From a virus (lineage: Duplodnaviria; Caudoviricetes): a stretch of 64,000 nucleotides of DNA. Below are positions 2,508 through 48,330 of this stretch, piece after piece. Made by a program: the position numbers and the translations under genes. The notes under the pieces are model-generated. The model searched no databases. It was not told the DNA's origin and saw only the letters and a program-made list of their open reading frames with translations. Location of the stretch: positions 6,335 through 70,334 of IMG/VR virus record IMGVR_UViG_2929707518_000001. One strand, written 5' to 3'. Position 1 is the stretch's first letter, and each line of letters opens with the position of its first letter.

Positions 2508-2555
2508 GTGCGCTCCAGAGCATGCAGAGAACGCCGATCTGGTCGGCGTGGGAGG

Positions 2556-18479: not shown

Positions 18480-18495
18480 GCGCACCCCCTGCCGG

Positions 18496-24368: not shown

Positions 24369-24380
24369 TCCGACCACCTC

Positions 24381-31580: not shown

Positions 31581-32024
31581 TTACTTGGTGATCGTCTTCG
31601 CGAAGAAGCCGCGGGTCTGCGTGCTCACGGTGTGACTCTGCTGGCTGACAGGCCCGTTGTAGTGGTGGTTGTGGGTCTCAGGCATGACCGCCTTGGCGCT
31701 GCGGAGCATTCGAGCGATGGCGAAAATCGGGGCGGCGATGGCCACGGGTGCGGCGCAGATCATGCCGATGACGACAGGGTCGGCGTAGTCGGAGGCGACG
31801 AGGATCAGCGAGGTGGCGCCGCCGACGGACAATGCGGCGACGCTGCCGCAGAGCATCAGTGCGCCGGTATCCGTCGCCTTCTGGGACATCGGGGGCCGGC
31901 CGGGCTGCGGGACGGGTGGGGTGGGTCCGACGGCGGGAAGCGGGCTGCGATCGCGGTGGCTGGTGGGACCGTGGTAGATCGCTTCGACGTCCGCGACGAG
32001 CTGCGGGTCGGGGATGCTGTTCAC
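31581..32024 (-). CDS. Spread (Spd)-like membrane protein
   Basis: Pro-rich N-terminus and two TM helices; downstream of traB. Confidence 0.55.
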   Translation of the reverse strand: MNSIPDPQLVADVEAIYHGPTSHRDRSPLPAVGPTPPVPQPGRPPMSQKATDTGALMLCGSVAALSVGGATSLILVASDYADPVVIGMICAAPVAIAAPIFAIARMLRSAKAVMPETHNHHYNGPVSQQSHTVSTQTRGFFAKTITK

Positions 32025-32302
32025 GACAGGGGCTCCGTTCGGTTGCCGCGCTCGATAGATGATGCGTTCAGCTGCTCGTTGAGTTCGGCGACCTCGGTGA
32101 GCTTCTCGAGGATGGGGCTGAGGTCGAGGCGCAGCGTCATGTGCGCGGCGGTGCTCTTGCGTAGATCGGTGCGGAGCCCAGAGCCGCCCGGGTTCAGCAT
32201 GGTGAGGTGGGCTTCTACGAGCTTTTCGGCTGCTTCCAGTAGCGCGACAATCTCCTGGGCGTTGTTGGCGACGAACTCGTAACGGGGCGGGATTGCGGGC
32301 AC
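32021..32302 (-). CDS. Hypothetical protein
   Basis: GAGGAG RBS with GTG start; GTGA overlap. Confidence 0.55.
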   Translation of the reverse strand: MPAIPPRYEFVANNAQEIVALLEAAEKLVEAHLTMLNPGGSGLRTDLRKSTAAHMTLRLDLSPILEKLTEVAELNEQLNASSIERGNRTEPLS

Positions 32303-32382
32303 GGCGGGCTCCTCGGTGACAGCGGCCTGGTTGGGGTCGATGGGCGCGAGCGGCCGGGCGGGGGCCGGCCACCCGCGGGTGG

Positions 32383-32610
32383 TTACTTGCTGGAGACGTC
32401 GTTGACGGCGTCGCTGGCCATGCGGACTCCGGTGCCCATGACGTCCTGCACCTTGGCGACACCTGTGGCACCCCACGGGGTCGCCACGAGGAGGACCCAG
32501 AAGAGACTCACGACGAGGAATTCGCGGCGCTTGAAGCTGGCGTCCTTCTTCATCCAGATGCCGATGCCGCCCGCGACGAGGAGGAACAGGGCGGTGATGG
32601 TGAGGGTCAT
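32383..32610 (-). CDS. Small two-TM Spd-like protein
   Basis: ATGA-coupled to traB; hydrophobic 75 aa. Confidence 0.6.
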   Translation of the reverse strand: MTLTITALFLLVAGGIGIWMKKDASFKRREFLVVSLFWVLLVATPWGATGVAKVQDVMGTGVRMASDAVNDVSSK

Positions 32611-35159
32611 GACGCACTCCGGGTTTCTGCGAGGGGGGTGTCGAGAGGGGCTGCGGTGTGCCAGTCGCGCTCGAGCTTGCGGAGCTTGTCGAGGCGTTCC
32701 AGGCGGGCGGTGGCGTTGGCGACGTTGGCGGGCTTGAGGCCGGTGACGTCGGCGATGGTCTTGTTCCGGCGGGCGCCGTCGTCGACCGCGTGCCAGACGC
32801 GCTGGGAGCGGGTGAGGGGTACGAGATCGTCTAGCTCTTCGTCTTCCACGTCGGTCCTGCTGGTCGAGACGTCGATGATCGTGGGGTTCCTCCGGGTGGC
32901 GCCCTGCTCCTTGGCGGCCAGCTCGCGGAGGAACTGCTCCTCGTCGGCGGCATCGAGGTGCCGGTACTCGTCGCGCCGCAGGTAGGCCGTCCCCGCCGCC
33001 TCGGCTTCGGGGGCGGTGAGGGTCTCCATGGGGAACTGGCGGCTGAGGCGGGCGGGGTTGGTGTGGAAGGCGGCTCGGGACTGGGTGTACTGGTCTTTGC
33101 CGTCGGCCATGTAGAAGACGCCGCCGGTCTCGGATCCGTCGGGGAAGCGTTCCGGAAGCGGTTCGAGCCGGTACTTGGGAGTCCGGGAGCCGAGGGACAT
33201 GACGTCAACGTCGGTGCGGGCCGTGCGGAAAAGGGCAATATTCCCGGACTGGAGCATGTCGCGGATCGCGTTGGCGCTGCTGTCGGAACCGAGGGAGTCC
33301 AGGTTGGGGATCTGGACCCAGACCCGCGCGGCGATGCCGGCGGCCCGGGAGAGGCGGCCGACGCTGGAGATGGAGCGGAGGAGCGGCTTGACATGGTCGG
33401 CCAGAGGGTCCTTGAGGACCATTTCGTTGAACTCGTCCCAGGTCACGGTCATGGGGGCGAACGGTTCCCCGGGGACGAAGAAGCTGCGGCCGTTCTCGGT
33501 GTACCCCTCGGCGTCGAGCCACTGCATGGTCATCTGCTGGGCGTAGCGGTACTCGGAGACACGGTTGGCGCCCTGGCCCATGAGCATGGCTCCGTAGGCG
33601 GATTTAACGAGCCAGTCGAGGTCGTTCATCCAGGGGGCGTAGCCGGCTCCGCCCTTGCCGTCGGCCAGCCAGGAGACGAACCCGTTGGCGCGCTGGGCGA
33701 CCTGGAGGTCTTCTTCGAGGCTGGTTTTGCCGGCGCCGGTGGTGCCGGAGCCGAAGGCGTGAACGGCGGAGGCTGAGGAGCGGCCGGACATGCCGCGGCG
33801 CTTGGGGTCGTATTTGAGGAGTCTCCATCGCGTGGGGTTGCCATAGATGTCCTGGCCAACGGTGATGTAGCCCTGGTCGTCCATGATGAGGGCGTCCAGG
33901 TCGAGGGCCACGCCGCGCTGGAGCGGGTTGTTGCTCATCTCGTTGACCTCGATGCGGCGGGAGTCGAGGACGCGGAGGTGGAGCCGGGAGGCTGCGCCTT
34001 CGCCCTGCAGGTCGAGGGCTTGGGCGATGCTGCCGGCCTGCACTTCGGCGACGCCGGATCCGCGTCGGGGCATGAGGAGCTTGAAGCGGCGCCCGTGCTC
34101 GGTGCGTTCGACGTCGTACAGCTCGCTGCCGTTGTAGGGGCTGTACTCCTGCCAGACGGCCGACAGGTCGTTCTCGTCCAGCTCACCGGATGCTGCTGCT
34201 CGCAGGCGCACGGTGAGCTTGGCCCGTCCTGCGGCCATGTCGTCGGGCCGGTAAATGTTGACGGCCCGCGGCGGAACCTCGAAGGCAATCGAGACCGCGT
34301 CCTGGCCCACACTGAGGGCCGGCTTGGCCGTGGTGGAGACGATGACGGCGGTAAGCCTGTCGTCATCCAGCTGCATGCTGACGAGGCGGGAGTCGGGCAG
34401 CGGCCCCCGCTCGCAGGCGATCCATTCGTTCCAGCGGGCCAGGTACCACTCGGCGGTCCTCGCCTGCGCCTCGACAGGGTGGGCAGGGTCGGGCTTCTGC
34501 CACATGCGCGCGCCCCACGCCCCGGCGAGGGAGGTGACGACCAGGGGAGCCCACCAGGGGGTGTCGAGGTATCCGGTGGCGGGGATCGCGGCCAGCGGTC
34601 CGGCGCGCAGGGCCATTTCCGTGGCGCTGTAACGTCGCCACCAGCCCTTCTTCCAGTCCGGCAGGACCTTCGCCCAGGCGGTGCGCAGGAGCTCGCAGCG
34701 GGCCCGGCGGGCTTCGGCCGTCGCCTGGCGGACCAGGGCCGGACGCTCGGCGTGCCAGTACCAGCCGTTGGCAACGTCGTGAACGGGGACGAGTATCCCG
34801 TCTGTGTTCACGGTCAGCGTCTCAGCGTGGTCCTCGGCGAGGCGGCGGCGCATGCGGCGCACGGTGCGCCGGTAGCCGCGGCGGCTGGAGCGGCACATCC
34901 ACTCCCACGGCTCGCCCTGGCCGGGGAGCCAGCGCCAGGGGCCGGGCAGCATCCCCAGGGCGGCCCAGCCAGCGGCTACTCCGGTGGCGCCCATGGTGGT
35001 GAAGAGGAGGGGGTCGCCGGTGAGTGTGGAGGCGGCACCGAGGCCGGTCCCGATGTAGAGGCCGGGGTTGTTGAGGGTGGCGATCCGGGCGCGGATGCCG
35101 GTGAGTTCCTTCGGGTTGTCGTTGATGGTGGGTGTGGCGGGTACGGTCGTCGTCGCCAT
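32607..35159 (-). CDS. traB: FtsK/SpoIIIE-type conjugative DNA translocase (TraB-like)
   Basis: N-terminal TM segments, Walker A GTTGAGKT, DGKGG, Walker B VTWDE, arginine-finger region GRLSRAAG and C-terminal winged helix. Confidence 0.8.
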   Translation of the reverse strand: MATTTVPATPTINDNPKELTGIRARIATLNNPGLYIGTGLGAASTLTGDPLLFTTMGATGVAAGWAALGMLPGPWRWLPGQGEPWEWMCRSSRRGYRRTVRRMRRRLAEDHAETLTVNTDGILVPVHDVANGWYWHAERPALVRQATAEARRARCELLRTAWAKVLPDWKKGWWRRYSATEMALRAGPLAAIPATGYLDTPWWAPLVVTSLAGAWGARMWQKPDPAHPVEAQARTAEWYLARWNEWIACERGPLPDSRLVSMQLDDDRLTAVIVSTTAKPALSVGQDAVSIAFEVPPRAVNIYRPDDMAAGRAKLTVRLRAAASGELDENDLSAVWQEYSPYNGSELYDVERTEHGRRFKLLMPRRGSGVAEVQAGSIAQALDLQGEGAASRLHLRVLDSRRIEVNEMSNNPLQRGVALDLDALIMDDQGYITVGQDIYGNPTRWRLLKYDPKRRGMSGRSSASAVHAFGSGTTGAGKTSLEEDLQVAQRANGFVSWLADGKGGAGYAPWMNDLDWLVKSAYGAMLMGQGANRVSEYRYAQQMTMQWLDAEGYTENGRSFFVPGEPFAPMTVTWDEFNEMVLKDPLADHVKPLLRSISSVGRLSRAAGIAARVWVQIPNLDSLGSDSSANAIRDMLQSGNIALFRTARTDVDVMSLGSRTPKYRLEPLPERFPDGSETGGVFYMADGKDQYTQSRAAFHTNPARLSRQFPMETLTAPEAEAAGTAYLRRDEYRHLDAADEEQFLRELAAKEQGATRRNPTIIDVSTSRTDVEDEELDDLVPLTRSQRVWHAVDDGARRNKTIADVTGLKPANVANATARLERLDKLRKLERDWHTAAPLDTPLAETRSAS

Positions 35160-35223
35160 CCGCTTTCTCCGTTTCGCGGTTGGGAGGGGCGGGGTCAGTG
35201 GGTGACCCCGCCCTTCGTGGCGT

Positions 35224-35616
35224 TTAGTGCCGCTGGTTGAAGGCGGGCTCGGCCATCTGCACCGAGTGGGTGCGGTTGGCGTCGGCCATCCGGCCGTGCT
35301 GGCCTTCCGTTTCGCTGGCCAGGCCCTGTGCTGCGGTGGCGAGCACGTCGGCGGCGGAGACGATCGCGGCGACGCTGCCCGCCATGGCGGTTGAGATCGT
35401 CGAGATTTCCATGTAGGCGGTGGTGGTCGGCTCGTCGACGCTGAGGATGGTCATGGCTTCGGACAGGTAGCGGGCGGAAGCGGCCCGGTCTTCGAACCGG
35501 TCTTTCATGCGTTCGACGGCCTGCCGGGTGCGGGCGGCGCGGATGCCGTAGGCGGCGGCCCTGGCCATGACGGCGGCGTAGGTGATGGTCGTGCCGATGG
35601 CCTTTGCGATGCTCAT
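35224..35616 (-). CDS. Helical transfer-associated protein
   Basis: Directly upstream of traB; GGGAG RBS. Confidence 0.6.
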   Translation of the reverse strand: MSIAKAIGTTITYAAVMARAAAYGIRAARTRQAVERMKDRFEDRAASARYLSEAMTILSVDEPTTTAYMEISTISTAMAGSVAAIVSAADVLATAAQGLASETEGQHGRMADANRTHSVQMAEPAFNQRH

Positions 35617-35618
35617 GG

Positions 35619-36728
35619 TCAGGCTCCCGTCGTTTCGAAGACCTCGGTGTGGGCGGCGGTATCTTCCGCGTCGACGGTGTCGCTGACGTAGAAGGGGCGT
35701 TCGGCGACCGATTCCATGTCGGCGGCGATCCCGGCGTACACGCCCTGGCCGGCCTCGAGGAGCTTCTTTGCCTTCACGACGGCTTCGTCCTGGGCGTATG
35801 TGTGCTGTTTGAGCTGGTTGAGCTGGCTGTTGATCAGCTGGTACTGCTCCATGCAGCGGGTGACCCAGCCGGCGACCCGGTCGCCAACTCCGGCGTTGCG
35901 GAGGGCTGCGACGAGGTCGTCGGCTCGGCCGATCTCGCGCTCGCAGCGCTCTTGGAGGCGGTCGTAGACGGTCAGGTCGTCATCGCACATGAGGGAGAGC
36001 TCTTCGCTCTCGTCGTGGACGGATTCGTAGGTGACTTCGGATGCCATGCGGCCAACTCCGTCTTCGGGGGGCTGGATGGGTGTGGCCGGCGCTGCCGGCT
36101 CGGGCTCGGTGCCGGGTGTGGCGGCAGGTTCGGATCCCCTGGGGGCTGGAACTGGTGTGGAGTCGGAGGGTGGGGCTGTCGCCTCGGGCTGGGGGGGCGG
36201 CGCCGGTGCGGGGCTGGCCGGAGCCTTCTCGGGGTCCGGCTCGCCGCCGGCCGGACCGGCTGCGGTTGTGGGCTTGGCGAGGGTGACTCCGGCCGGGGCG
36301 CCTGCGGTCGGCGGCGTGGTCGGCATCGGAGGGGCCGCAGGCGGGGTGATGATCGGCGCGGGGTCGGGTGCGCCTTCCGCCTGACGGCGCTTGCGGTACT
36401 CCCGAAGGGCCGAGCTGCCGGTGTCGCGGGCCCAGTACACGCCCTTGGCTGCCCAGTTCCCCAGGTGCCGGCCCGCTGGGGTGGCGACGCGTTCCAGCGG
36501 CGTGTGCCTGCGGTACCCGGATCGGAAAGCCTCAGGGATCGTGAGCGGGGTCCCGTCGCTGCCCTTGGGATTGTCTCCGTGCTTGTCGGCGATCTTCCGC
36601 ACGGCTTTCTCGTGGCGGACTTGCTCGCGCCGTAGGTCGCGTTCGGCGGGGCTGATGCCCAGCCGAGCCTGCTCGCTCTGCGCTCCTGCGGCCCATGCCA
36701 GGAGGCAGGCGGCGATCAGTACTTCCAT
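35619..36728 (-). CDS. Transfer-associated (TraA-position) protein with a Pro-rich linker
   Basis: Hydrophobic N-terminus, Pro/Ala linker and helical C-domain. Confidence 0.6.
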   Translation of the reverse strand: MEVLIAACLLAWAAGAQSEQARLGISPAERDLRREQVRHEKAVRKIADKHGDNPKGSDGTPLTIPEAFRSGYRRHTPLERVATPAGRHLGNWAAKGVYWARDTGSSALREYRKRRQAEGAPDPAPIITPPAAPPMPTTPPTAGAPAGVTLAKPTTAAGPAGGEPDPEKAPASPAPAPPPQPEATAPPSDSTPVPAPRGSEPAATPGTEPEPAAPATPIQPPEDGVGRMASEVTYESVHDESEELSLMCDDDLTVYDRLQERCEREIGRADDLVAALRNAGVGDRVAGWVTRCMEQYQLINSQLNQLKQHTYAQDEAVVKAKKLLEAGQGVYAGIAADMESVAERPFYVSDTVDAEDTAAHTEVFETTGA

Positions 36729-36842
36729 CGCTTCCCCTCACGTTCTGCGACGGGGAGGGGTGAACGGCTGGCCGTGCGCGCACGTGCGCGCGTAGCAGAT
36801 CCGCCGGTTCATCTCTACCCGGGTGAATGAACGAGTGAATGA

Positions 36843-37025
36843 TTACTGTGTGTAGCGTTCCGTGATGCGCTGGAGCGCGTCCGCTACCTCCAGCCAGGCC
36901 CGGTTGGCGATCACCGGGTCCACCTGTTGGAGGGTGCTGCGGAGGCGGTCCATGCGCCGGAGGGCCCCGGTCTTGGGGGATACGGCGTCCGCGCGCTTGA
37001 TCTCTTTGGGCCAGTACGAGCTCAC
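36843..37025 (-). CDS. Small hypothetical protein
   Basis: AAGGGA RBS; 60 aa. Confidence 0.5.
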   Translation of the reverse strand: MSSYWPKEIKRADAVSPKTGALRRMDRLRSTLQQVDPVIANRAWLEVADALQRITERYTQ

Positions 37026-37214
37026 GACGTCATCCCTTCGGCTGGCGGGGGCAGGGGCTGCCGGGTCTGCTTGCCGGGTCTGCGAACGTTCCGCTCACCG
37101 GGGTTACTCGTCGGCCTGCGACCTGCAAGTATGTGGTTCAGACTGCTTCCGGCAGTCTCGGCAAGGTCCAGCGGTTGATGTCGCTGGGCCCTGCCGGCTA
37201 TGCCGGGGAGCGGG

Positions 37215-38312
37215 TCAGGCGGGTACGGCTTCGGCTTCTCGGGTCTCGATCTCGCCCCAGGTCCGGCGGACGCGGTTCTCACGGGCCTGGAATCCGGCCC
37301 CCTTGAAAGCGGCATACGCCTGTCGGTAGGAGCGGGGCGGTTCCATCGCGTAGCGAAGCCAACGCACGACCACTTCGAGCTGCTCGTCGGAGAGGGTCAC
37401 GCCCGGCTTGGGAACCTCTACGCCAGCGGCCACAGCAAGTTCCTCGAGGGTCATGGCGCCCTCGATGGGGACCTGCTCCACCCCCGGTTCGCTGTCCGTT
37501 TCGTCCGTGGTCACGGGCGAGATGGCCATGGCCTCGATTTCCGGGATTACCTGCGTGGCCAACGTGTGGCCACCGTGCTCAGGAGCGGTGTGGCCGGGGC
37601 CCGTGGCCACGGGGCGTGGCCCGACCGTCAGAAGCTCCCGGGACATGAACGCGGCGGCCTTCTCGCCGTGCTCCTTGTCAGCCGCGGCGAGGGTCTTCTC
37701 GGCCTTGGCACGAGCCTTGCTGATCCTCTTCTGGGCCGTGGTCAGCACCTTGGCTTGGGCGATCTGCCGGGCGGTGCCGGCGAGGTGCTGGGCAGTCTCA
37801 GTCGCTACTTCGGTGAGGGCTTCGGACGTCAGGTGCCGGGCGTCGGCCGCTGCGAGAGCTCGGGCGTTGCGGTCGGCGGCGGACTGTTCGGCGATCAGGT
37901 CGGCCGTCGCGCCGTCGGCGAGGACGTTGCCGACGAACAGTCGGAGCCCCATGAACGCCGCGGCTGCGACTGGGACGCCGGCGAACACCTGGGCGTGACC
38001 GAGGATCAGCAGGGTCGTCACGGACACGCCGATCGCTACGGCAGAGAGGCCGAGCATGACCGTCATGCCGATCTTGGACCGCTGTCGGATCGCGACCTCG
38101 GACATCCGCAGGGAGCCGATCCAGAGGGCGTCGTAGACGATGGCGATCGACCAGCCGACCGCGAGAGCGGCCTTCCCGTGCAGGCCGATCATCTGGCCGA
38201 GCTGCCCGCCGACCGTCACGGCCATCAGGGTCAGGGCGGCGCCGGTGAGGAGCTTCTCGACGATGTTGAAGACGTTGAAGTCGAACCGGCCGAGCCATTC
38301 GGGGCGCTTCAT
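37215..38312 (-). CDS. SpdB-like membrane spread protein
   Basis: Four N-terminal TM helices, a coiled coil and a C-terminal HTH-like segment; AGGAGG RBS. Confidence 0.62.
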   Translation of the reverse strand: MKRPEWLGRFDFNVFNIVEKLLTGAALTLMAVTVGGQLGQMIGLHGKAALAVGWSIAIVYDALWIGSLRMSEVAIRQRSKIGMTVMLGLSAVAIGVSVTTLLILGHAQVFAGVPVAAAAFMGLRLFVGNVLADGATADLIAEQSAADRNARALAAADARHLTSEALTEVATETAQHLAGTARQIAQAKVLTTAQKRISKARAKAEKTLAAADKEHGEKAAAFMSRELLTVGPRPVATGPGHTAPEHGGHTLATQVIPEIEAMAISPVTTDETDSEPGVEQVPIEGAMTLEELAVAAGVEVPKPGVTLSDEQLEVVVRWLRYAMEPPRSYRQAYAAFKGAGFQARENRVRRTWGEIETREAEAVPA

Positions 38313-38321
38313 GGCTGCCTC

Positions 38322-38585
38322 CTAGGCAGCGTCGGCGAGCGGCTGCCCGTCGAGCACGTCGGTGAGCGGGCTGCATCCGGGGTTCGCTTCGTCGTAGGCG
38401 GCGGCGTCGAGCCAGACGGCGGCGGCCATGTCGAGGTCGCCGGCGTGGAGGGCGGCGAAGTAGCGGCGCTCGATGGCCTCGCGCTCTTCGTGTTCGGCCC
38501 AGGCGAGTTCGATGGTGTCGGGCATCTCGATGACGGTGGGCGCCTCGCCGGCGGGCGGGGTCGCGATCAGGGTGAAGGTCGGCAT
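38322..38585 (-). CDS. Small acidic hypothetical protein
   Basis: GAGGAG RBS. Confidence 0.6.
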   Translation of the reverse strand: MPTFTLIATPPAGEAPTVIEMPDTIELAWAEHEEREAIERRYFAALHAGDLDMAAAVWLDAAAYDEANPGCSPLTDVLDGQPLADAA

Positions 38586-38641
38586 GGCTTACTCCTCGGT
38601 GGTCAGGCGGGGTGACTGGAGTGGGCGGCGGCAGTGGCGTC

Positions 38642-38740
38642 TTAGCGGCCCTGGCGAGGGTTGGCGAACAGAACGAAGAGGGTGAAGGCGCCCAGGCCAA
38701 GCAGGGCGAGCATCGACAGGACGATCAGGAGGTAGTCCAT
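38642..38740 (-). CDS. 32-aa single-TM peptide
   Basis: MDYLLIVLSMLALLGLGAFTLFVLFANPRQGR; AAGGA RBS. Confidence 0.55.
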   Translation of the reverse strand: MDYLLIVLSMLALLGLGAFTLFVLFANPRQGR

Positions 38741-38776
38741 GGCGGTAGTTCCTTCCAGCGGTCGGTCGGGGTTGGG

Positions 38777-39016
38777 TTAGCGGCTGAGTGCGGCGATGGC
38801 CTTGGCGGCGAGGCCGCCGTATTCCTTGCTGCGGGTGGCCTTGGCGGCGGTCAGTGTGTCGAGTGCGGCGCGGATCGCGGGCTCGGGCCAGCGGGACCTC
38901 AGGCCGAGGACGGCCTGCACGGCGGCCGGGGTTGCCGAGCCTTCCCGCAGCAGGATGGGCTCGACGTTGCGCTGGTAGTCGGCGACGATCTCGGCGAGAC
39001 GGGTCTGAGTGGACAC
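38777..39016 (-). CDS. Hypothetical protein
   Basis: AAGGA RBS. Confidence 0.55.
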   Translation of the reverse strand: MSTQTRLAEIVADYQRNVEPILLREGSATPAAVQAVLGLRSRWPEPAIRAALDTLTAAKATRSKEYGGLAAKAIAALSR

Positions 39017-39034
39017 GGCGGTTCCTTCCGTTGG

Positions 39035-39331
39035 TCAGGCGGTGGGGCGGGGCATGGCGCGACAGGTTTCGGCGTGAGACTGGGCCCAGTCGCGAGCTGC
39101 CCTCTCGGCAGCAGCTGCGGTGACGCACTCCGTCTTCAGCAGCGCGCTCACTACGGCGTAGTCGAAGTTGGAGCGTCGCCCGCATCCCCCGCAGGCGGGT
39201 CGATAGCCCTCGTTCTGCGGGGTCGGGTCGCGGTGGTCGATCACATCGACAGTGATGTCCTCACCGAGGATCTCGGCGGCCTTGGTCAGGTAGCGGGCGA
39301 TGACGCCCTCGGGCCAGGCGGTATCGGGCAT
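39035..39331 (-). CDS. Hypothetical protein (CxxC...HxxxC)
   Basis: CGGCG and WAQSHAETCRAMP motifs. Confidence 0.65.
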   Translation of the reverse strand: MPDTAWPEGVIARYLTKAAEILGEDITVDVIDHRDPTPQNEGYRPACGGCGRRSNFDYAVVSALLKTECVTAAAAERAARDWAQSHAETCRAMPRPTA

Positions 39332-39348
39332 GACGGTGTCTCCGGTGG

Positions 39349-39582
39349 TCAGGCCTGGATGGCGGCGAGGCGGTCGAACTCGGCCTTGTTGGTCTGACGG
39401 AAGGCGGTGATCTCGGCGTCGGTGATGCCGTGCTGCCGTCGCAGGGTGTCGACGTTCGCGGCAGCCTCAAGGTTGCTGGCGTTGAGCGGTCGGCCGATCC
39501 GCGCCCAGTGGTCCTTGATGTGGGCCTGGATGGCGGCGCCGAACAGGATCCGGGCGCGCTCTTCGGCAGGGGTTTCGGGCAT
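39349..39582 (-). CDS. Hypothetical protein
   Basis: GAGGAG RBS before MPETPAEE. Confidence 0.6.
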   Translation of the reverse strand: MPETPAEERARILFGAAIQAHIKDHWARIGRPLNASNLEAAANVDTLRRQHGITDAEITAFRQTNKAEFDRLAAIQA

Positions 39583-39624
39583 GACGGTGCTCCTCATGGT
39601 CAGGCGGGGGTGGTGGGGTGGGGT

Positions 39625-39810
39625 TCAGCGGTTGGTGACAGTCCAGCCGCGGCCGGACGGGCGGATGATCCCGCCGGGGGTGTGGATCTGGCCGCCGCTG
39701 GCGCCGAGGCCGAGACGGTCGAGGTCATCGAGCAGCATCGCGATCCGCCCGGCGATGGTCTTTGCCTGCAGTTCGAGGAGACGGAGCTCGTCGGGGGTGC
39801 CGGTGAACAT
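39625..39810 (-). CDS. Hypothetical protein
   Basis: AAGGG RBS. Confidence 0.55.
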   Translation of the reverse strand: MFTGTPDELRLLELQAKTIAGRIAMLLDDLDRLGLGASGGQIHTPGGIIRPSGRGWTVTNR

Positions 39811-39878
39811 GGCTATGCCCTTCAGCTGACTGATCGGGGTCTAGCGGTTGGTGTGCGCCTGGCCGATGCCGAGGGCGG

Positions 39879-40112
39879 CTACTCGCCGTCCTGCGGGCGG
39901 ATCGGGTCGTGGTCGCCCTGTCCGCACCAGTCGCATGCGGTGGGCTGGTCGGCGTGGGCGGCGGCCGTCGCGAAGGCGAGGCGTGCGGCCAGCCGGTAGG
40001 CGGACTGGCTGCGGCGGGAGGGGTGTGCCGGGTCCGCGAGGATGGCGAGGATCCGGCCGGTGAGGCCTTCGGCGCGGTGCTCCTCGGTGATCGCGAGGGC
40101 CGGGGCGCTCAT
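39879..40112 (-). CDS. Hypothetical protein
   Basis: ATGA overlap. Confidence 0.5.
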   Translation of the reverse strand: MSAPALAITEEHRAEGLTGRILAILADPAHPSRRSQSAYRLAARLAFATAAAHADQPTACDWCGQGDHDPIRPQDGE

Positions 40113-40522
40113 GCCGTCATCGCCGGGCGGCGGACGTGGGAGGCAGCGGCGTGCGCGGCGCGGTCGATGAGCGTCTCGCGGGCCTGCTGCACGGCGGCCG
40201 GGATGCCGTCGGCGGACTGCACGGTGATCGCGATGACGGGGACGACCATGGGGATGGCCTGGTCGCCGTCCTCGTCGGGCTCGGCGAGCATGTCCAGGAT
40301 GTTGGTGAGGGTCTCCGGGACGTAGGCGGTGATCTCGTAGGCGCCGAAGTCCGAGTCGGGCGTCGCCTCGACGATCACGATGCCGTCGGCGGCCTCGACG
40401 GTCTGGATGATGTCGCCGAAGCGGTAGTCGGCCGGGATCAGCGACAGCAGGCGGGCGGCGTCGGCGCCCAGCGTGGCCTGCCCGGACAGAGAGGTGCTGG
40501 TCAGGATAGTGTTGTTCGACAT
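40109..40522 (-). CDS. First gene of the transfer operon, hypothetical
   Basis: AGGAGGA RBS. Confidence 0.65.
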   Translation of the reverse strand: MSNNTILTSTSLSGQATLGADAARLLSLIPADYRFGDIIQTVEAADGIVIVEATPDSDFGAYEITAYVPETLTNILDMLAEPDEDGDQAIPMVVPVIAITVQSADGIPAAVQQARETLIDRAAHAAASHVRRPAMTA

Positions 40523-40556
40523 GCGGGTCCTCCTGGGTGCAGGTAGGTCATCGCTA

Positions 40557-40591
40557 GGCCCTGACCAGGTGAGTAAGACCTGTTCAGGGCC
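40557..40591 (-). promoter_or_regulatory. Leader hairpin of the transfer operon
   Basis: GGCCCTGA.CAGGT-7 nt-ACCTG.TCAGGGCC inverted repeat. Confidence 0.6.
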
Positions 40592-40681
40592 CTTTGCGTT
40601 GGGCACAACCAGAGGCTATCCCATTCAGGGGTCGCTTGTATAGGATAGATGGGAGACATCTTGGAGCGAGAGGAGAGGCCC

Positions 40682-41449
40682 ATGGCGCCAGCCACCTACA
40701 TGGACGTAGCAGACGCGATCCGACGCGACGTCGAGGCGGGTCGCTGGCCCATCGGCGACCCCATCCCCGGCATCGACAGACTCAAAGACGAGTACGGCGT
40801 GTCACGGCAGACAGCGAACCGAGCCGTGCAACACCTGGTCGCCAGCGGCCTGCTCTACTCGGAAGGCCGCCGCGGCACATTCATCCGGCCGCGCCTCGGG
40901 CCGCCCGCCGTGGTCCGGGACCGCATCGCCTACAGGGACGACATCGGCTACTTCTTCGACCGCAACGCGCAGGACTGGCGCGGCGTTGGGGCCGGCTCGC
41001 AGGTGGTCGGCGTAGCTCCGGACGAGATCGCTGACGCGCTCGGCGTCGCACGCGGCGAGCACGTCATGATTCGTGACCGAGCCGTCGGTCCGCCTGGCGC
41101 CGATTACCCGCACCAGTTGGCCACGTCGTACCTGCCGATGACCCTGGTGGGCGAGCTGCCGATCCTCGGCGCTGCAGCCACGGGGCCAGGCGGCATCTAC
41201 GACCGAATCGAGGAGCACCTCGGCGCGGCGATCGAGTGGCGTGAGTCGATCAGGGCGCGTCCGGCGAGCGATGAGGAGCAGCTGCGCCTGAAGATCAGCG
41301 CCAGCATCTGGGTGCTAGTCGTAACCCGCGAGTCCCGGGTAGGCGAGCAGGTGGTCGAAGTGAACCAGACGCGGATGGCAGCCGACATGTTCGCCGTCTC
41401 GTACCACGTCGAACGTGACGAGTCGGCAGTTTGGCCGCGAGCCACCTGA
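40682..41449 (+). CDS. GntR/HutC-family repressor with UTRA domain (KorA/KorSA/TraR-like)
   Basis: YMDVADAIRRD...YGVSRQTANRAV...GRRGTFI; GPGGIYDRIEE; divergent from tra/spd. Confidence 0.88.
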   Translation: MAPATYMDVADAIRRDVEAGRWPIGDPIPGIDRLKDEYGVSRQTANRAVQHLVASGLLYSEGRRGTFIRPRLGPPAVVRDRIAYRDDIGYFFDRNAQDWRGVGAGSQVVGVAPDEIADALGVARGEHVMIRDRAVGPPGADYPHQLATSYLPMTLVGELPILGAAATGPGGIYDRIEEHLGAAIEWRESIRARPASDEEQLRLKISASIWVLVVTRESRVGEQVVEVNQTRMAADMFAVSYHVERDESAVWPRAT

Positions 41450-41460
41450 CCCGGATAAAG

Positions 41461-41491
41461 CGAAGCCCCCGGCCGACGGCCGGGGGCTTCG
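41461..41491. terminator. Bidirectional hairpin terminator
   Basis: Perfect CGAAGCCCCCGGCC-GAC-GGCCGGGGGCTTCG between convergent genes. Confidence 0.85.
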
Positions 41492-41555: not shown

Positions 41556-42074
41556 TTACTGCTTCTCGAGGGCCGTCTTGTACTCGCCTGCTTGTTCGGG
41601 GGTGAGGAGCCGGCTGACGCGCACGAGGGTGGCGCCGTGGACGTAGTCGTATTCGGCGAGCGCGGGCATGCCCTTGGTGACGGTCTGGATGTAGGTGGCC
41701 CGGGTCTGGGCGTCGGCCGCGCTGGCGAAGGCTTCGATTGCGCCGCCGAGGGATACGTCGCCGGCTTCGACGCCTTGGGTGTCGTCTGGTTTGATGCGGC
41801 CGTCCTTGAAAGTGATCTTCGAGGTGTACTGGCCGGGCCTTCCGAGCAGGTGGTTGGGGTCACTTTCCGCGGTGACAGGGGCGCTCCCGGTGGCGGAGGG
41901 TACGGCCGCGGCGAGAGCCTTGTACGCGCTCGAGGCGTTGGCGGCGGGAGACGCGGTGGACGGCGACGCGGGCTGGGGCTTGCTGTCGCCGCTTGTCGGG
42001 CTCGAGCAGCCGGCGAGGAGCAGGACGGTGCCGGCTGCGAGCGCGGCGAGGTGCGTGGTGCTGGTTCGGCTCAT
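41556..42074 (-). CDS. Lipoprotein
   Basis: Signal peptide with LLAGC lipobox and a Ser/Pro linker. Confidence 0.8.
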   Translation of the reverse strand: MSRTSTTHLAALAAGTVLLLAGCSSPTSGDSKPQPASPSTASPAANASSAYKALAAAVPSATGSAPVTAESDPNHLLGRPGQYTSKITFKDGRIKPDDTQGVEAGDVSLGGAIEAFASAADAQTRATYIQTVTKGMPALAEYDYVHGATLVRVSRLLTPEQAGEYKTALEKQ

Positions 42075-42248: not shown

Positions 42249-43674
42249 TCAGGCGGGCTGCCAGCTGACGGAGCCCTCTTCGACGTAGCCGCGAGCTCGG
42301 CTGGTGCCGGTCGGCTGGAGGGTGTCCTCGTCTCGGTCGGCCAGGTAGTTGGTCCAGAAGCTGACACGGGCCCGGGCCGCGCCGATGGAGCCGTAGGGCC
42401 CTTCGTGCTTGGTGGTCTCGGCGCCGTCGCGGTCAGTGATGGTGATGACGGCGCGGAACACGGTGGCGTTGGCGGCCATGCCGATCGATCGGGCCATGGC
42501 TACTTCTCCTTGGTCTGGTTGATGCGGACCCCGGCCCAGATGAGGGTGAGGCCGAGGGCAGTGACGCAGATGATCAGCAGGTGCCAGATGCTCACGGGGT
42601 CTCCCGGGGCTCGACCGTGTACGTCGTGGTGATGCGGAGGATGCGGAACTCGGCATTGGGGAAGCTCTGCTCGCGTGCCTTGAGGCAGGCGACCGCACGG
42701 TCATGGCTGCTGAATTGGGTGCTGGCGACAAGCCAGTCGGTGTCACCGCGGCGTTCGACCATCCACTCGTAGACGTGGGGGTACGGGTTGGGCGTGGTCT
42801 CGTTAGCGCTCACGGGGTGGGCTCCTGGGGGTTGAGGGCGGCGCGGAGTTCGTAGGCGGCCCCGCCGTGGGTGCGGAGGACTGCCCAGTCGGTGGCCAGT
42901 TGCCGCACGCGGGCAATCGCGGCGAGCGCGTCATCGAGGGCCAGGGCCTTGGCGTTGAACGCCCGGCAGGCAGTGTCGCGCTCGTGTTCGGCCTGCTCGG
43001 CGCGCTGCTCGGCGGCGTCGCGCTCAGCCTCAGCGGCCGTCAAGAGGTGGATGGCGCGGGCGGCGAATTCGGAGGCGGCGGCGTCGAGAGAGTCGCACCG
43101 TGCCTCGGCCGCCTCTGCTCGCACGTAGAGGGCGGTGAGTTCGCGGTCGCTGAGCTGGTCGAGGAGTTTCCGGCCGGGCTGCTCGGCGTTCTGCTGGCGT
43201 GCGGCCTGCTGCTGGCGCGCCCAGTCGATGGGCCCGGTGGGCTGCTGCTCGGCGTGGGGTTCGGGGTCGTCGTCCCAGTCGATCGGCGCGGTCACGGCTG
43301 GCTCCCGTCGTCTTGGGTGAGGAGGTCACGGAGGGCGGCGAGTCCGGCCGGGGTGAGGCCGATGTCGACGGACCAGACCTGCGTGTCGAGGTAGGTGATC
43401 TCGGGGAGGTGGAGGGTCACGCCGTCGCCGTCCGGGTTCGGGGTGATCGTGGGCTGGTCGGTCATCGGTCTCTCCGGTGTCGTGGCTGCCCGTTTGCGGG
43501 CTTGTCGGGTGCGGTCGGGGTGTCGGGGATGTCGGAGCCCCAGTACGCGGCGTGGGGGTCCGTCTGGCGGGTCTGCCGGTCCTGCTCCTCGCCGTGGCGG
43601 AGGGTCCGGCTCATGGCGATCGCGGCGAGGACGATGACCAGGACGGCGGACCCGGCCCACCCCCAGCCGTTCAC
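42249..43674 (-). CDS. Run of six small coupled hypothetical genes (42249-42497, 42500-42595, 42592-42813, 42810-43295, 43292-43465, 43462-43674)
   Basis: Mostly RTGA overlaps with GGAG RBSs; two are single-TM. Confidence 0.55.
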
Positions 43675-43922
43675 CGCGGGTCCTCGCCATCGAGGCGATC
43701 CACTGGCCCGACCAGCTCCAGCCCGATCACCAGGCGCATCCCGCAGAGGGCGAGGATGCGATCGGCCCAAAGGATCGTCAGCGTGGCGTGGCCGGTGAGC
43801 ATCTGGCTCATGTGCTTGGTGGACAGGTTGAGCTGGCGGGCGGCTTCGGCCTGGCTGGTGCCGGTTACGGCGAGCGCGTTGTGGACGTGGCGGCGGAGGG
43901 CGGCTTCGGCGGGGTCGATCAC
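43671..43922 (-). CDS. XRE-family HTH protein
   Basis: SQAEAARQLNLSTKHMSQMLTG. Confidence 0.8.
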   Translation of the reverse strand: MIDPAEAALRRHVHNALAVTGTSQAEAARQLNLSTKHMSQMLTGHATLTILWADRILALCGMRLVIGLELVGPVDRLDGEDPR

Positions 43923-44227
43923 GGCTGTTCCTCAGGTTCGGGCGGCCACGGGTCGGCGCGGACGGGCACCGGTCCGCGCGGCGGCGGATCGTTGCGGGTC
44001 TCGCAGGACCGCCACCACCGAAGGGCCTGCCGGGGCTTGGCGGCGAGCAGGATGGCAATCTCCCAGGCGAGGACGGGTTGCGCGGCCCACCAACGCCAGG
44101 AGGTTCGGGTGACGTGCCGGTAGTCGATCTGCCGCCACGCCCAGAGGGATGCGCGAGACAGGGGTGCGGTGCGGCCGGTGAGGTAGCCGAGGGCCAGGCC
44201 GCCGGCGATGAGGAGCAGGGTCAGCAC
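43919..44227 (-). CDS. Membrane-anchored hypothetical protein (paralog A)
   Basis: MLTLLLIAGGLALGYLTGRT. Confidence 0.6.
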   Translation of the reverse strand: MLTLLLIAGGLALGYLTGRTAPLSRASLWAWRQIDYRHVTRTSWRWWAAQPVLAWEIAILLAAKPRQALRWWRSCETRNDPPPRGPVPVRADPWPPEPEEQP

Positions 44228-44229
44228 GG

Positions 44230-44565
44230 CTACACCTCGGCTTCGGGGGCAGCCCAGCGCAGCACGTGGGCCACCGTGAAGCCGTTCACCGACAGAGTCG
44301 GCGCAGCCTCCTTCGCGAGCTTCAGCGCGGTGTCGAGGTCGAAGCGGTGCTCTGCCAGCCACTCGTCATCCCGCTGGGACGGGACCGACTCGTGGCTCCA
44401 CTGGCCCGCTGCGCTCAGGCAGGAGCCGTGACGGACGACGGCCCACAGGTCCCGGCCGCGGTACTCGACGTTGAGACTGAAGTGCGGGGCGTTGTCGTTG
44501 GTCTCGGGGAGGCAGGAGACGACGTATCGGGTCGGCCGGACGGTCGGCTCGGGCTGCTCGCTCAT
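44230..44565 (-). CDS. Hypothetical protein
   Basis: VEYRGRDLWAV...HRFDLDTAL; AGGAG RBS. Confidence 0.65.
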   Translation of the reverse strand: MSEQPEPTVRPTRYVVSCLPETNDNAPHFSLNVEYRGRDLWAVVRHGSCLSAAGQWSHESVPSQRDDEWLAEHRFDLDTALKLAKEAAPTLSVNGFTVAHVLRWAAPEAEV

Positions 44566-44849
44566 TCGGGGTCTCCTTGCTGGGGCGGCCAGGGGTTGGC
44601 GCGGAGGACGAGCGCGGGCGAGCGGGGCGGCGGCGGGTCGTTGCGGGTCTGCCAGGCGTGCCAGCCCTGGACGGGATGCCCGATCAGCCAGCTGATGTTC
44701 TCGGCGGAGCGGATCGTGTAGACGGCGGCGTAGCGGAGGCCTCGGGGGCGGGTCTGCCAGGCCGCCCAGTCGGAGGCGGCGCGGGCGGGACGGGTACGGC
44801 CGGTGATGTAGCCGACGAGCAGCGCGGCGCCGAGGAGGAGGGTCAGCAC
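44562..44849 (-). CDS. Membrane-anchored hypothetical protein (paralog B)
   Basis: MLTLLLGAALLVGYITGRT. Confidence 0.6.
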   Translation of the reverse strand: MLTLLLGAALLVGYITGRTRPARAASDWAAWQTRPRGLRYAAVYTIRSAENISWLIGHPVQGWHAWQTRNDPPPPRSPALVLRANPWPPQQGDPE

Positions 44850-46750
44850 GGCTGCTCCTTGTCGTCGGGCAGCGGGTACCCCGCGCCCCTGAGCCGGTCG
44901 GCAAGGTCGTTGCAGTCGATGCCGCCGATGTCGTTCGACTCGATGACGTAGTCGCAGACGATCCGCATGACCTCGTCGAGCCGCTGCTCCGCGTGCTGCC
45001 GGAACTCGTGCGGGGTGGGCCGCTGGCGCCGCTGGATGGTGACGGTGTAGTCGTCGGTCGGGTTGTCGCCGCTGCGTAGGTCCATGGACACGGACGGGGC
45101 GCTCATCTCGTTCTCGACATAGTTCTCGGCGCTGTAGCCGTCGAGGACTCCGCGCATGCTCGCAACGAAGATCTTGAGGATCTCGGTGGCGGGTTCCAGG
45201 GAGAGGGTGGCGACGCCGTCGCGGATCTCCAGGGAGCGCATCATGGTGCCGTCGGCGAGGATCTCGGCGGCCAGGTCTCCGAGGGCGTCCATGGCGGTGT
45301 CGGCAATTCGGTTGGAGCGGTCGGTGTCCTCCTGGCCGTAGGTGCTGTACATGGCGGTGGCGATGGCGTCATGGGCCTGCTTGCGGCGGGCGGCGCGCTG
45401 CGGTTCGGTCAGGTCGCTCACGCTCCGGTCTCCTCGGCGGCGCGGTCGGCGGTCGCTGCGTCCTGGATGAGCTGGATCGCGGTGATGCAGTCCTCGCGGC
45501 TGACCGCGCAGTCGCCGCGGTTGTGCTCGATGTGCTCGTAGATCTCTTCGGCGGAGCTGGTGTACGGCAGGTTCGTGTTCCAGTCGTCCTCGACGGCGAA
45601 GCCGATGCCGACGGTGCCGAACTTCGGGAACCCGATGACGGCCTGCCCGTCGGCGACGCGGACGCGGTACAGCCAGTAGTCAGCGCCGATGGGCGGGGTG
45701 ATCAGGAGCGGGCCGATGGCGGCCGTCCGGTCGGGCTGGTCGCGGCGTTCAAGGATGAGGGGCATGGTGCTGCTCCTGGGGTGCGGGGTGGGTGGCCGGC
45801 CCGCAGGTGACGGGCCGGCCGGGGCGGGGGTCAGGCGGACAGTCGGGGCTCGATGTACGTCCGGCCGCGGTTGTAGTGCGGGACCGGGTCGACGCCCGGA
45901 ACGACAACCCGTTCGTCACCGTCGATCTCCTGGCCGTCTCGGTGGTAGACCGGCCCGTCCGGGTCCTCGTGTGCCTCCTCCCACTCCGCGAGTCCCTCCG
46001 CGTCCAGGCCCTCAGGCGGGGTTTCGCCCCGGTACCAGTCCTCCGTGATGCCGAGCTGGTCGAGTTGCGGGCCGTCCAGTTCGGACACCAGGTGCGTGGT
46101 GCCGGCATGGACCTGGTAGCCCTTGGCCTGCGGCAGGTGCGCGTAGGCGGCCTGGATCTCTTCCAGGCAACCGACCATGCGCTGCTGCCACTCGATCGGC
46201 ATGGACTGCATGAGGGTGCGCGGCAGGACGAGGTAGCTGGAGTAGGTGAGTTCGAACCAGGCATGGACGGGGCCGTCGGTGGGGTGCTGCTCGTTCATGT
46301 GGGTCTCCTGGTGGATGCTGGTGGGGTGGCCGTCCCGGAGTCCCGCCGGGACGGCCGTCTGCGTGGTCACGGGGTGTGCGGGTCGCCGCTGCCGGGCGAC
46401 GGCTCAAGGGGCCAGCCACCCAACCCGGCGGGACGGGCATCCGGCGCACCGTCTACGTCTCGCGGCCGGTAGGCACCGATGACGTCTCGCAGCCAGCCCG
46501 GCATCTCTGCAACCGGGGGCCACCGTTCGGCGGAGTCCTCCCACTCGACGATGACGTCGACACGAGCGATGTCCTCGCGGAGGACGTAGGCCAGGCGCAG
46601 GCCGTGGGGCTTCTGGGTTCGGCCGATCAGGTTGGTGAGAGTGGGCGCATCGGTGAGGTCGATTCGGACCTCGTGTCGAATCTCGCGGGCGCTGGCGGCG
46701 AGCGGCCCTACGGGCAGGGCGTGATCGTGCGGGGTAGGGATGGTCGGCAT
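44843..46750 (-). CDS. Four hypothetical genes (44843-45421, 45418-45765, 45831-46298, 46367-46750)
   Basis: Each has a GGAG-type RBS and high-GC codon bias. Confidence 0.6.
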
Positions 46751-46779
46751 CAGAACTCCTGGTGAGGTGTGGCGGGCTG

Positions 46780-47727: not shown

Positions 47728-47771
47728 GAGGGTCTCCTGGGTGCGAGGGCGGGCGGGAACCGGGTAGCCGG

Positions 47772-48185: not shown

Positions 48186-48330
48186 CGGTGTGCCTTTCAG
48201 GCGGCGGGGTGGCTGCAGTTGGTGAACCAGGCGTGGTCGGGGTCGGTCGTGGATGCCTCGATTCGGTCGCAGGGTTCTGTTCTGACGGCCTGTGGGGGTG
48301 GTTCTGGTGTCCTTGGACCCTGGGGCGTTT

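Follow-up and report, generated by a model that had tools for sequence, protein, structure and literature searches.

Can a temperate tailed phage also move as a Streptomyces plasmid does, as double-stranded DNA and without a virion? The question is raised by a 64-kb stretch, here called the window, that comprises bases 6335-70334 of an IMG/VR provirus record 70,334 bases long. A minus-strand operon of 15 genes, together with a divergent gene for a GntR/UTRA regulator, occupies positions 31,581-41,449 of the window and is referred to below as the cassette. A reading of these letters made by a model (the sequence-only reading) had proposed a conjugative Streptomyces phage; the computational tests described here are favorable to that idea, which is not new, as the reading missed the precedent of the plasmid-phage pZL12. 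We give a little better than an even chance to the view that the region holds a full gene set of the Streptomyces plasmid type for transferring and spreading double-stranded DNA, which has become a stable component, kept by selection, of a lineage of integrating temperate siphophages. At about that same level of confidence, its function would be the virion-independent movement of phage double-stranded DNA between hyphal compartments and between hyphae.

The window is a tailed prophage of siphovirus type in which the genes for integration through lysis are complete. Gene calling by codon statistics gave 99 genes, all of which were scanned with Pfam and PHROG. The G+C content is 69%, the minus strand bears nearly all genes, and the host is Streptomyces-like. 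Read from right to left, the gene order starts with a tyrosine integrase (62711-64000, plus strand, open at the end of the record; phrog_1 E 1.4e-34, PF00589 and PF14659), a helix-turn-helix regulator, and an excisionase-like gene. There follow a DnaN clamp, an exonuclease VIII-like gene, an HNH gene, a replication initiator, a DnaC-like loader, a C5 methyltransferase, and then the transfer cassette. To the left of the cassette are genes for a DUF3307 protein, endonuclease VII, an exonuclease, and a MerR protein, and then a late region that extends from a tail-fiber-like gene to the holin (3-24377, minus strand). Its members are terS-like, TerL (20089-21435), portal, MuF/2H-phosphoesterase fusion, protease, capsid, and tail tube genes, and finally genes for the tape measure, a 1139-amino-acid tail protein, a peptidase, endolysin, and holin. 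The window is thus predicted to encode the whole Caudoviricetes temperate-phage set (terminase, portal, capsid, protease, tail, lysis, and integration), and the earlier description of a tailed prophage with head, tail, lysis, replication, and integrase genes holds. No integrase or Rep was found inside 31.5-41.5 kb with Pfam, NCBIfam, or PHROG, as had also been claimed.

The candidate motor of the cassette is g43 (P0001; 32607-35159, minus strand), which encodes an 850-amino-acid TraB-like DNA translocase, as judged from profile, AlphaFold model, and context. The protein has a Walker A motif, GSGTTGAGKTS (471-479), and a DE Walker B motif around D575/E576. An exhaustive phmmer search with g43 yielded a family of 127 cluster representatives, and the 67 full-length ones were aligned; residues G477 and K478 of Walker A and residue E576 are invariant across these relatives. 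PF01580 (FtsK_SpoIIIE) is matched weakly by 38 of the 67 (E<=0.01; best 1.4e-9), MarR_2 by 15, and FtsK_gamma by 5. Against PDB, the family profile matches EccC (1.3e-19), FtsK (1e-10), TcpA (2e-7), and also HerA. A PDB search with the single g43 sequence returned TcpA only (E 0.54).

The AlphaFold model built from the alignment of 67 relatives has a mean predicted local distance difference test (pLDDT) score of 76.6 and is confident at residues 230-760 and in a C-terminal winged helix at 784-835. Its layout is a helical N-terminus of low confidence (1-225), a beta-rich domain that precedes the motor, an FtsK-type RecA-like motor, and the winged helix, whose helices (784-793, 799-806, and 810-822) and strands (826-829 and 832-835) have pLDDT values of 86-96. 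Foldseek places the FtsK motor (E 1.4e-13) and TcpA (E 1.5e-13; template modeling score 0.61-0.67) at the top, over about 410-460 columns, then EccC/EssC, HerA, and VirB4, the last being a weak match (E 1.8e-4). With hhalign, the g43 family aligns to pIJ101 Tra with a probability of 98.8% (E 5.4e-17) over 407 columns that take in the pre-motor domain, the motor, and the winged helix-turn-helix at the C-terminus, and to SLP2 Tra and pZL12.71c with probabilities of 96.6% and 96.4%. The family profile, the invariant Walker residues, and the structural matches uphold the earlier call of an FtsK-type ATPase, and the modeled C-terminus that aligns with that of pIJ101 Tra upholds the call of a winged helix-turn-helix. 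Judged from its sequence and predicted structure, g43 is a very divergent FtsK-superfamily P-loop ATPase with the domain order of TraB.

Two other identities of the ATPase were considered and rejected. For a type VII secretion ATPase (EccC/EssC), only one ATPase domain aligns instead of three in tandem; because it has a single such domain, g43 is not EccC-like, and no type VII secretion family appears by name in the general Pfam and PHROG scans of the 99 window genes. For a type IV coupling protein of the VirD4/TraG/TcpA type acting with an apparatus, the same scans name no relaxase or type IV secretion system family. A comparison with TraB and EccC had been suggested by the sequence-only reading; its outcome favors that reading, as g43 is collinear with pIJ101 Tra and unlike three-domain EccC, within the limit that a canonical FtsK scores equally well, a point taken up below.

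The regulator gene g55 (40682-41449, plus strand) encodes a GntR helix-turn-helix and a UTRA domain (PF00392 E 3.5e-15, PF07702 E 1.8e-12; phrog_10724 E 9.5e-47), as was noticed earlier. The protein is Kor/TraR-like by position, and is 24% identical to pIJ101 KorA over 193 amino acids (E 4e-6). A GntR gene is in the equivalent position in the plasmid NZ_CP013744 (L001), pSV2, pSLE1, and pZL12. The gene arrangement of Kil-Kor systems is present, with a divergent GntR gene as in pIJ101, and by analogy g55 may encode a repressor. The divergent intergenic region includes an imperfect palindrome, CCCTGACCAGGT-N7-ACCTGTTCAGGG (40559-40589), which by its sequence and position is a candidate operator for the GntR regulator.

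Related cassettes are found in several kinds of element. Pattern scans revealed 25 related loci, 4 in IMG/VR and 21 in Streptomyces genomes; g44 and g43 are present in all 25, and g46 and g45 also in 24. Contexts were classified by using Pfam on 102 flanking open reading frames (ORFs) and PHROGs on whole records. Eight loci have terminase, portal, capsid, or protease genes on the contig and are assigned to phages (L006/G001, L008/G002, L009/G003, L007, L012, L017, L018, and L022), although the phage genes of L022 are on the opposite strand, which makes its assignment less sure. Twelve loci with no phage genes within 10 kb are termed plasmid-like (L010, L011, L013-L015, L019-L021, L024-L026, and L030); DUF2637 replaces g47 in six of them, and others have AAA_33. 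Only L026 is titled a plasmid; the title of L013 calls it a chromosome, with the locus at most 30 kb from the end. Two loci are AICE-like, that is, they resemble the integrative and conjugative elements of actinomycetes (AICEs), one is truncated (L023, in which the ATPase match stops at residue 719, next to a transposase gene), and two have uninformative flanks and are unclassified (L016 and L028).

The phage-borne copies include three contigs (G001, G002, and G003) that are 99-100% complete by CheckV and have full virion gene sets, with terminase, portal, and capsid families different from those of the window. In L007, L012, L017, L018, and L022, terminase or portal genes are within 10 kb of the cassette. 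The terminases of cassette-bearing phages belong to at least four PHROG families. A search of five records for the PF03354 terminase detected none near the cassette, and the PHROG scan then found the terminase of G003, which marks a limit in the sensitivity of that search. Wherever the cassette is phage-borne, it is placed between the early or replication genes and the late operon, a position conserved across nine elements; the expectation that related prophages would carry the module at a matching locus is borne out by the eight others. The integrase gene lies inside the contigs of G001 and G002, and the cassette therefore belongs to a phage genome in its non-integrated form.

A tblastn search with the ATPase finds 124 plasmid records in PLSDB (120 from Streptomyces, 4 from Kitasatospora), eight of which have at least 80% coverage, at 66-74% identity. 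Plasmid NZ_CP013744 carries g47 (its C-terminal part), g46, g45, g44, the ATPase, g42, g40, and the divergent GntR gene in collinear order, with 30-73% protein identity, and the layout recurs in pSV2, where identity is about 26%. A second, canonical FtsK gene is located 1-6 kb downstream of the TraB-like gene in seven of the 12 non-phage loci (L014:13835-16237, L015:13760-16204, L019, L021, L024, L025, and L030). Five of these encode alpha, motor, and gamma domains, gamma is not detected in that of L015, and the gene of L021 is split; NZ_CP013744 has such a gene too. The two AICE-like loci are also of interest in themselves: in L027 (14879-19188) the cassette adjoins Prim-Pol, DUF3631, and tyrosine integrase genes beside an arginyl-tRNA synthetase gene, and L029 (15368-16201) has Prim-Pol only. 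Both look like large AICE-type elements. In L022, the terminase large subunit (17048-19279, minus strand) has an inserted Hint (intein) domain, PF13403.

The cassette genes are under purifying selection. Ratios of nonsynonymous to synonymous substitution rates (dN/dS) were calculated for six genes of the window against G001, G002, L012, and L017, and 22 of the 24 comparisons give values of 0.15-0.42, with no internal stops in any subject. The ranges are 0.20-0.36 for g43, 0.15-0.57 for g44, 0.18-0.23 for g45, 0.24-0.38 for g46, 0.33-0.42 for g47, and 0.17-0.68 for g42. A quick maximum-likelihood tree (IQ-TREE) was made of 29 ATPases, among them those of pSV2 and pSLE1, which stand far off at the ends of very long branches. 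In it, a clade of four unites the window with G001, G002, and L012 at a Shimodaira-Hasegawa-like approximate likelihood ratio test support of 99, and each of these has a phage context. Their sister clade comprises L007, L009, L017, and L016; the joint clade has a support of 89, and seven of its eight rows are phage-borne. L018 and L022 are placed among non-phage copies, implying at least two or three switches of context.

That the cassette is a separate insertion with its own att sites, or a decayed remnant, was also considered, and both were rejected. No exact or high-identity repeats flank it: direct-repeat families in the flanks are 58-81% identical to the reference copy, inverted arms are at most 83% complementary, and the longest exact repeat is 15 nucleotides. 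ORFs are intact and dN/dS is low in the window and in the four phage copies. These outcomes, either of which could have gone against the sequence-only reading, leave its view of an integral module in place.

The gap of 189 bp between g47 and g46 is conserved far beyond its neighbors. Alignments and nhmmer define within it a non-coding element of about 165 nucleotides (37043-37207, minus strand), a candidate for the clt locus and/or an operon leader. The element is newly noticed here, and the Tra family of g43 is otherwise without a defined clt. The sense strand of its parts is the minus strand. They comprise a long hairpin with covarying pairs (37149-37206), a hairpin GACTGC-CGGAA-GCAGTC (37141-37157), two tandem copies of GCAGACCCGGCAA (37059-37083), which are direct repeats centered on GACCCGG with a period of about 13 bp, and a degenerate repeat copy (37091-37103). 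The GACCCGG repeats and their 13-bp spacing are invariant in the alignments, and other loci have two to four copies. An nhmmer search locates a single copy of the element in each cassette that has it, in every case on the upstream side of the g46 homologue. Such copies are present in the window, SLP2, plasmid NZ_CP013744, and 16 of the 25 related loci, whereas pSV2, pSLE1, and pIJ101 gave no match by this method.

Both parts of the element suggest functions. RNAalifold, applied to 11 sequences, predicts 33 pairs, nine of which have double compensatory changes. The G.U pairs occur on the sense strand, which favors the hairpin as an RNA or single-strand structure; Rfam has no match in the window. 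The clt loci of plasmids are described as direct 8-bp repeats bound by the C-terminus of TraB (PMC4447253, PMC4170104). In SLP2 the element is located between the spdB2-like gene and an FtsK/SpoIIIE gene, upstream of tra. Six co-transcribed SLP2 genes (SLP2.19-23) are reported to be required for conjugal transfer (PMC2782261), and annotation suggests that the FtsK/SpoIIIE gene heads that transfer operon. Perhaps the repeat part is the clt and the hairpin is a leader, as these candidate roles are not mutually exclusive, and a role for the element as an RNA leader is equally possible.

The candidacy of the repeats as clt is argued from conservation and clustering, not from enrichment. The recognition octamer of pSVH1 is presumed by us to contain GACCCGG, and pSVH1 is absent from the 17 plasmid records matched by pIJ101 Tra. 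An attempt to locate clt by repeat enrichment was abandoned, as scanning for k-mer clusters gave no result within the cassette. The window has its strongest iterons at 52078-52217, where three to four copies of 22-24 bp (for example, GTCACGGACTCTGCGTCCGTGACG) occur inside the replication-initiator gene (51656-52594); this is likely the phage replication origin.

A mechanism can be proposed in which the circular replicating phage genome, after excision or infection, would carry the cis element, and the winged helix of a hexameric motor would bind its repeats. The motor would then pump phage double-stranded DNA across hyphal contacts and septal cross-walls, aided by membrane partners, and neighboring compartments and hyphae would thus acquire lysogeny, or a productive genome, with no need for virions or receptors. 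Repression by the GntR protein would hold the operon off, as in Kil-Kor systems. DNA binding, substrate, timing, and any transfer at all are what we infer from the genes and the element, and conjugative movement of the phage circle, with mobilization of the chromosome, would be purely conjectural steps beyond these.

A broader proposal, which we regard as tentative and would not quite back, is that a whole lineage of chromosomally integrating Streptomyces siphophages consists of true conjugative elements. The excised circle would be recognized at a GACCCGG clt by the winged helix of the TraB-like hexamer and pumped as double-stranded DNA through a SpdB2-like complex, and chromosomal DNA would be mobilized through clt-like sites. 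The cassette and its cis element would move freely among phages, plasmids, and AICE-like elements, erasing the functional border between them.

Several observations weigh against a transfer cassette as we propose it, the first group concerning the ATPase. On its own, g43 matches nothing in Pfam (even at E<=10), NCBIfam, or PHROG, and the curated threshold of PF01580 is not reached; pairwise BLAST likewise gives no significant match to pIJ101 Tra (BLASTP E 0.57) or pZL12.71c. The canonical FtsK of a plasmid-like locus scores equally with the family profile (E 1.4e-16, motor only, 320 columns). Because the profile scores canonical FtsK as well as pIJ101 Tra, the Tra label on g43 is contextual: sequence does not separate 'TraB' from 'FtsK', and the assignment comes from architecture and context. 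TraB needs N-terminal membrane anchoring for pore formation, and the transmembrane segments that the sequence-only reading placed at the N-terminus of the ATPase were not borne out. The highest 19-residue hydropathy value in g43 is 1.3 (residues 51-69), none reaching 1.4, and the model there is of low confidence. A segment of at least 1.4 precedes Walker A in 37 of the 67 relatives. N-terminal membrane anchoring of g43 is therefore not supported by hydropathy.

The remaining observations on this side concern the cis element, the regulator, and the phages. The element is missing by nhmmer from nine of the 25 related loci: seven have DUF2637 or otherwise lack a g47 homologue, one is the truncated L023, and L007 is on a contig whose start falls within the cassette. 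Instead of being clt, the element may be a leader, and GACCCGG is not enriched across the window (26 observed, 31 expected). The divergent GntR gene is lacking in G002. The remaining 6.3 kb of the record, to the left of the window, holds a serine invertase gene and small genes and continues the homology to phage contig G002, and the integrase is open at the other end; both att sites of the prophage thus lie beyond the record, and competence for excision is putative. Finally, neither the ATPase (also by tblastn) nor g47 is found in any of 50,697 records of isolated phages at E<=1e-5, and virion production by these elements is consequently putative.

The alternative that survives best, though we think it unlikely, is that the cassette serves spread inside one mycelium only, in the manner of Spd proteins across septal cross-walls, lysogenizing the whole mycelium or making it productive with no mating between mycelia. 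Most prominent in the cassette are a SpdB2-like protein and several small membrane proteins, such spread is an obvious need for a temperate phage that infects a single hyphal compartment, and plasmid TraB and Spd proteins are described as forming an intramycelial spreading machinery (PMC4447253). However, the cassette is also on plasmids, and a related arrangement lies beside the SLP2 transfer genes. Moreover, the plasmid motor does both jobs, and sequence cannot separate the two modes.

A less probable alternative, to which we would give perhaps a small chance, is that the cassette is selfish or accessory cargo. It could act in trans on resident plasmids, AICEs, or clt-like chromosomal sites, or be a Kil-Kor addiction or exclusion module, in either case leaving the phage genome unmoved. 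In the comparison with G001 and G002, the most conserved DNA is a mosaic block with sharp borders (32342-38513, minus strand; blastn) of 80-85% nucleotide identity over 6.2 kb in otherwise dissimilar phages, the rest of the window matching them in patches of 150-1000 bp only. The switches of context in the tree also fit cargo, and TraB is thought to mobilize chromosomal markers through clt-like sequences, according to one account (PMC4170104). Yet the candidate cis site travels with the cassette in the phage genome, making the phage itself the nearest substrate, and the conserved position across nine elements also argues for an integral role.

It is quite improbable that the ATPase has instead a phage-internal or defense role, such as segregation or resolution, help in packaging, or FtsK/HerA-type anti-phage activity. 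The profile does match canonical FtsK and HerA-family defense ATPases, and the separate FtsK of the plasmid-like loci (seven of the 25) might mean that two translocases divide the work; but phages own a terminase, and the layout of GntR, membrane proteins, motor, and winged helix-turn-helix is that of the transfer regions of pIJ101, SLP2, and pZL12. Least probable is that these are integrated phage-plasmid hybrids or defective prophages with the cassette as their sole working mobility system. In favor of this view, no cultured phage carries the cassette, the capsid of the window is related only distantly to those of isolated phages (4 records, 28% identity), and the record is 79% complete by CheckV. 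Against it, the window, G001, G002, and G003 retain all hallmark genes for virions and lysis, intact and closely spaced, G001 and G002 were assembled in a non-integrated configuration, and no ParA/ParB was detected in the window by Pfam or PHROG.

At the head of the operon, g54-g48 (38322-40522, minus strand) are seven small ORFs of 61-137 amino acids, mostly soluble, without Pfam or PHROG matches; g50 is 43% identical to a pSLE1 ORF, and g48, g50, and g53 have homologues in G001 and G002. Next, g47 (37215-38312, minus strand) encodes a 365-amino-acid membrane protein with 4-5 N-terminal hydrophobic helices. Its C-terminal 73 amino acids are 52% identical (E 9e-22) to an SLP2 protein annotated 'spdB2-like' in RefSeq, an annotation and not an experiment, and g47 is called SpdB2-like by this transfer; its identity to the copies in G001, G002, and L012 is 66-75%. 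The 60-amino-acid protein of g46 (36843-37025, minus strand) is conserved, as described above.

The gene g45 (35619-36728, minus strand) encodes 369 amino acids, with a hydrophobic anchor at the N-terminus, a linker rich in Pro and Ala, and a C-terminal domain that is conserved. It is 79% identical in the same three phage copies and has no family match in Pfam, NCBIfam, or PHROG, and a protein atlas gave unnamed clusters only. Directly upstream of the ATPase, g44 (35224-35616, minus strand) encodes a helical protein of 130 amino acids, with 90-91% identity in the three copies and a helical hairpin as its fold in the atlas, which also gave a weak, sub-threshold 'TraA-like' lead (0.84). Its positional counterpart in pSV2 is 'conjugal transfer protein TraB' in RefSeq, and the match to g44 is weak (25%, E 2e-4).

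Downstream, g42 (32383-32610, minus strand) overlaps the ATPase stop by 4 nucleotides and encodes 75 amino acids with two hydrophobic helices, 84-94% identical in G001, G002, and L012. The last two genes, g41 (93 amino acids, soluble) and g40 (147 amino acids, 2-3 hydrophobic helices), lie at 31581-32302 (minus strand; phrog_19266 E 1.6e-48). The g40 protein is found in 21 of the 25 related loci and is homologous to pZL12.70c (43% identity), whose gene is just downstream of the pZL12 FtsK-like gene. Among the several Spd-like membrane proteins proposed earlier, g47 is backed by homology, and g42, g40, and the neighboring DUF3307 protein g39 are membrane proteins on hydropathy alone; SpdA, SpdB, and KilB of pIJ101 have no match among the window proteins. 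Just beyond the GntR gene is a gene for a lipoprotein, g56 (41556-42074, minus strand; lipobox LLAGC), with no family match.

Further observations concern phage genes outside the cassette. Between portal and protease, a 487-amino-acid protein (17022-18485, minus strand) has an N-terminus like 2H phosphoesterases and 2'-5' RNA ligases (PF13563 E 1.5e-13) and a MuF-like C-terminus. It also matches Acb1, which counters the cyclic-oligonucleotide-based anti-phage signaling system (CBASS), weakly (E 0.0028), and could be a capsid-delivered enzyme that degrades cyclic nucleotides. Left of the window, a serine DNA invertase gene (L004:4634-5377; PF00239 E 8e-42, phrog_125) adjoins the minor-tail and lysis end and is kept in G002 (31704-32273); it could be a Gin/Cin-like switch for tail-fiber genes. 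Tail-fiber-like genes are located between cassette and terminase, instead of closing the tail operon, in the window (22497-24377, minus strand), L012 (13960-15819), G001 (1072-3006), and G003 (43436-49337), and those of L012 and G001 are collagen-like. By Pfam, the DnaN sliding clamp (57074-58183, minus strand) has all three domains, and the C5 cytosine methyltransferase is encoded at 46780-47793 (minus strand).

Streptomyces hyphae are compartmented, and entry into one compartment therefore does not give a phage possession of the mycelium. If the proposed function is correct, a temperate phage gains a second, receptor-independent route of transmission, receptors alone would not predict host range, and lysogeny could pass through a colony by contact. 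Prophages would also join plasmids and AICEs as possible mobilizers of chromosomal DNA, including biosynthetic (antibiotic) gene clusters. One cassette and one conserved cis element circulate among phages, large plasmids, and AICE-like elements. The element of about 165 nucleotides is a concrete, testable clt candidate, and cultured strains carry such prophages (L012, L017, and L018).

A full-text literature search found no report of a tra cassette in an integrated tailed prophage, although the primary description of pZL12 may discuss relatives. The AICE survey of Ghinet et al. is described as setting aside regions with fewer than three modules as remnants, prophages, and so on (PMC3218068), which may help explain the lack of an earlier report. 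AICEs have Int, Rep, and Tra without virion genes, whereas the window has Int, Rep, and a Tra-like gene plus a full virion and lysis set.

Like pIJ101 (KilA/Tra), pSVH1 (TraB), and pSAM2 (TraSA), the window has a single FtsK-like motor with a C-terminal winged helix-turn-helix, a divergent GntR repressor gene, spread genes, and no relaxase or type IV secretion system. In contrast to the pIJ101 type, g43 has no Pfam FtsK_SpoIIIE match, the operon is much larger, and the regulator is about 5.5 kb upstream of the motor gene. TcpA of the Clostridium perfringens plasmid pCW3 ties for the best structural match to g43 and is its sole direct sequence match in PDB. TcpA acts together with a relaxase and a conjugation apparatus made up of several Tcp proteins, whereas Pfam and PHROG scans reveal no genes for either in the window.

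Large plasmids are closer. The core from g47 to g40 and the GntR gene are collinear in NZ_CP013744, and SLP2 shares the cis element upstream of an FtsK/SpoIIIE gene and the C-terminal domain of g47 in its spdB2-like protein. The window differs from these plasmids in that its cassette lies in a phage genome without plasmid replication or partition genes, and from the plasmid-like loci in that they often have DUF2637 for g47 and an extra canonical FtsK.

The nearest precedent for a phage is pZL12, described as a Streptomyces plasmid-phage and extrachromosomal temperate actinophage (PMC7157519) that is reported to transfer conjugally (PMC3583192); pSLE1 is described as syntenic with it and as encoding ParA/ParB (PMC4487206). 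The pZL12 record (GQ919031) lists a GntR gene (pZL12.80), small genes, a membrane protein (73c), 72c, the FtsK/SpoIIIE-like 71c, and 70c, and then terminase, portal, and capsid. What pZL12 and pSLE1, both tailed-phage genomes, have in common with the window is a divergent GntR gene, small genes, and genes for a membrane protein, an FtsK-like ATPase, and a g40-like protein, placed right before the operon for terminase and structural proteins; our choice of the 'major tra' gene of pZL12 is an assumption. Recognizable homologues in pZL12 and pSLE1 are limited to those of window g40, g50, and g21, the ATPase 71c is only a remote relative of g43, seen by hhalign and not by BLASTP, and pSLE1 is without the cis element. 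pZL12 is extrachromosomal and pSLE1 has ParA/ParB, whereas the window phage, an IMG/VR provirus with no ParAB detected, has a tyrosine integrase and an excisionase-like gene. Three features set the window apart from pZL12: it integrates into the chromosome, its Tra lineage is another one, of the large-plasmid type, and it has the cis element first noticed here.

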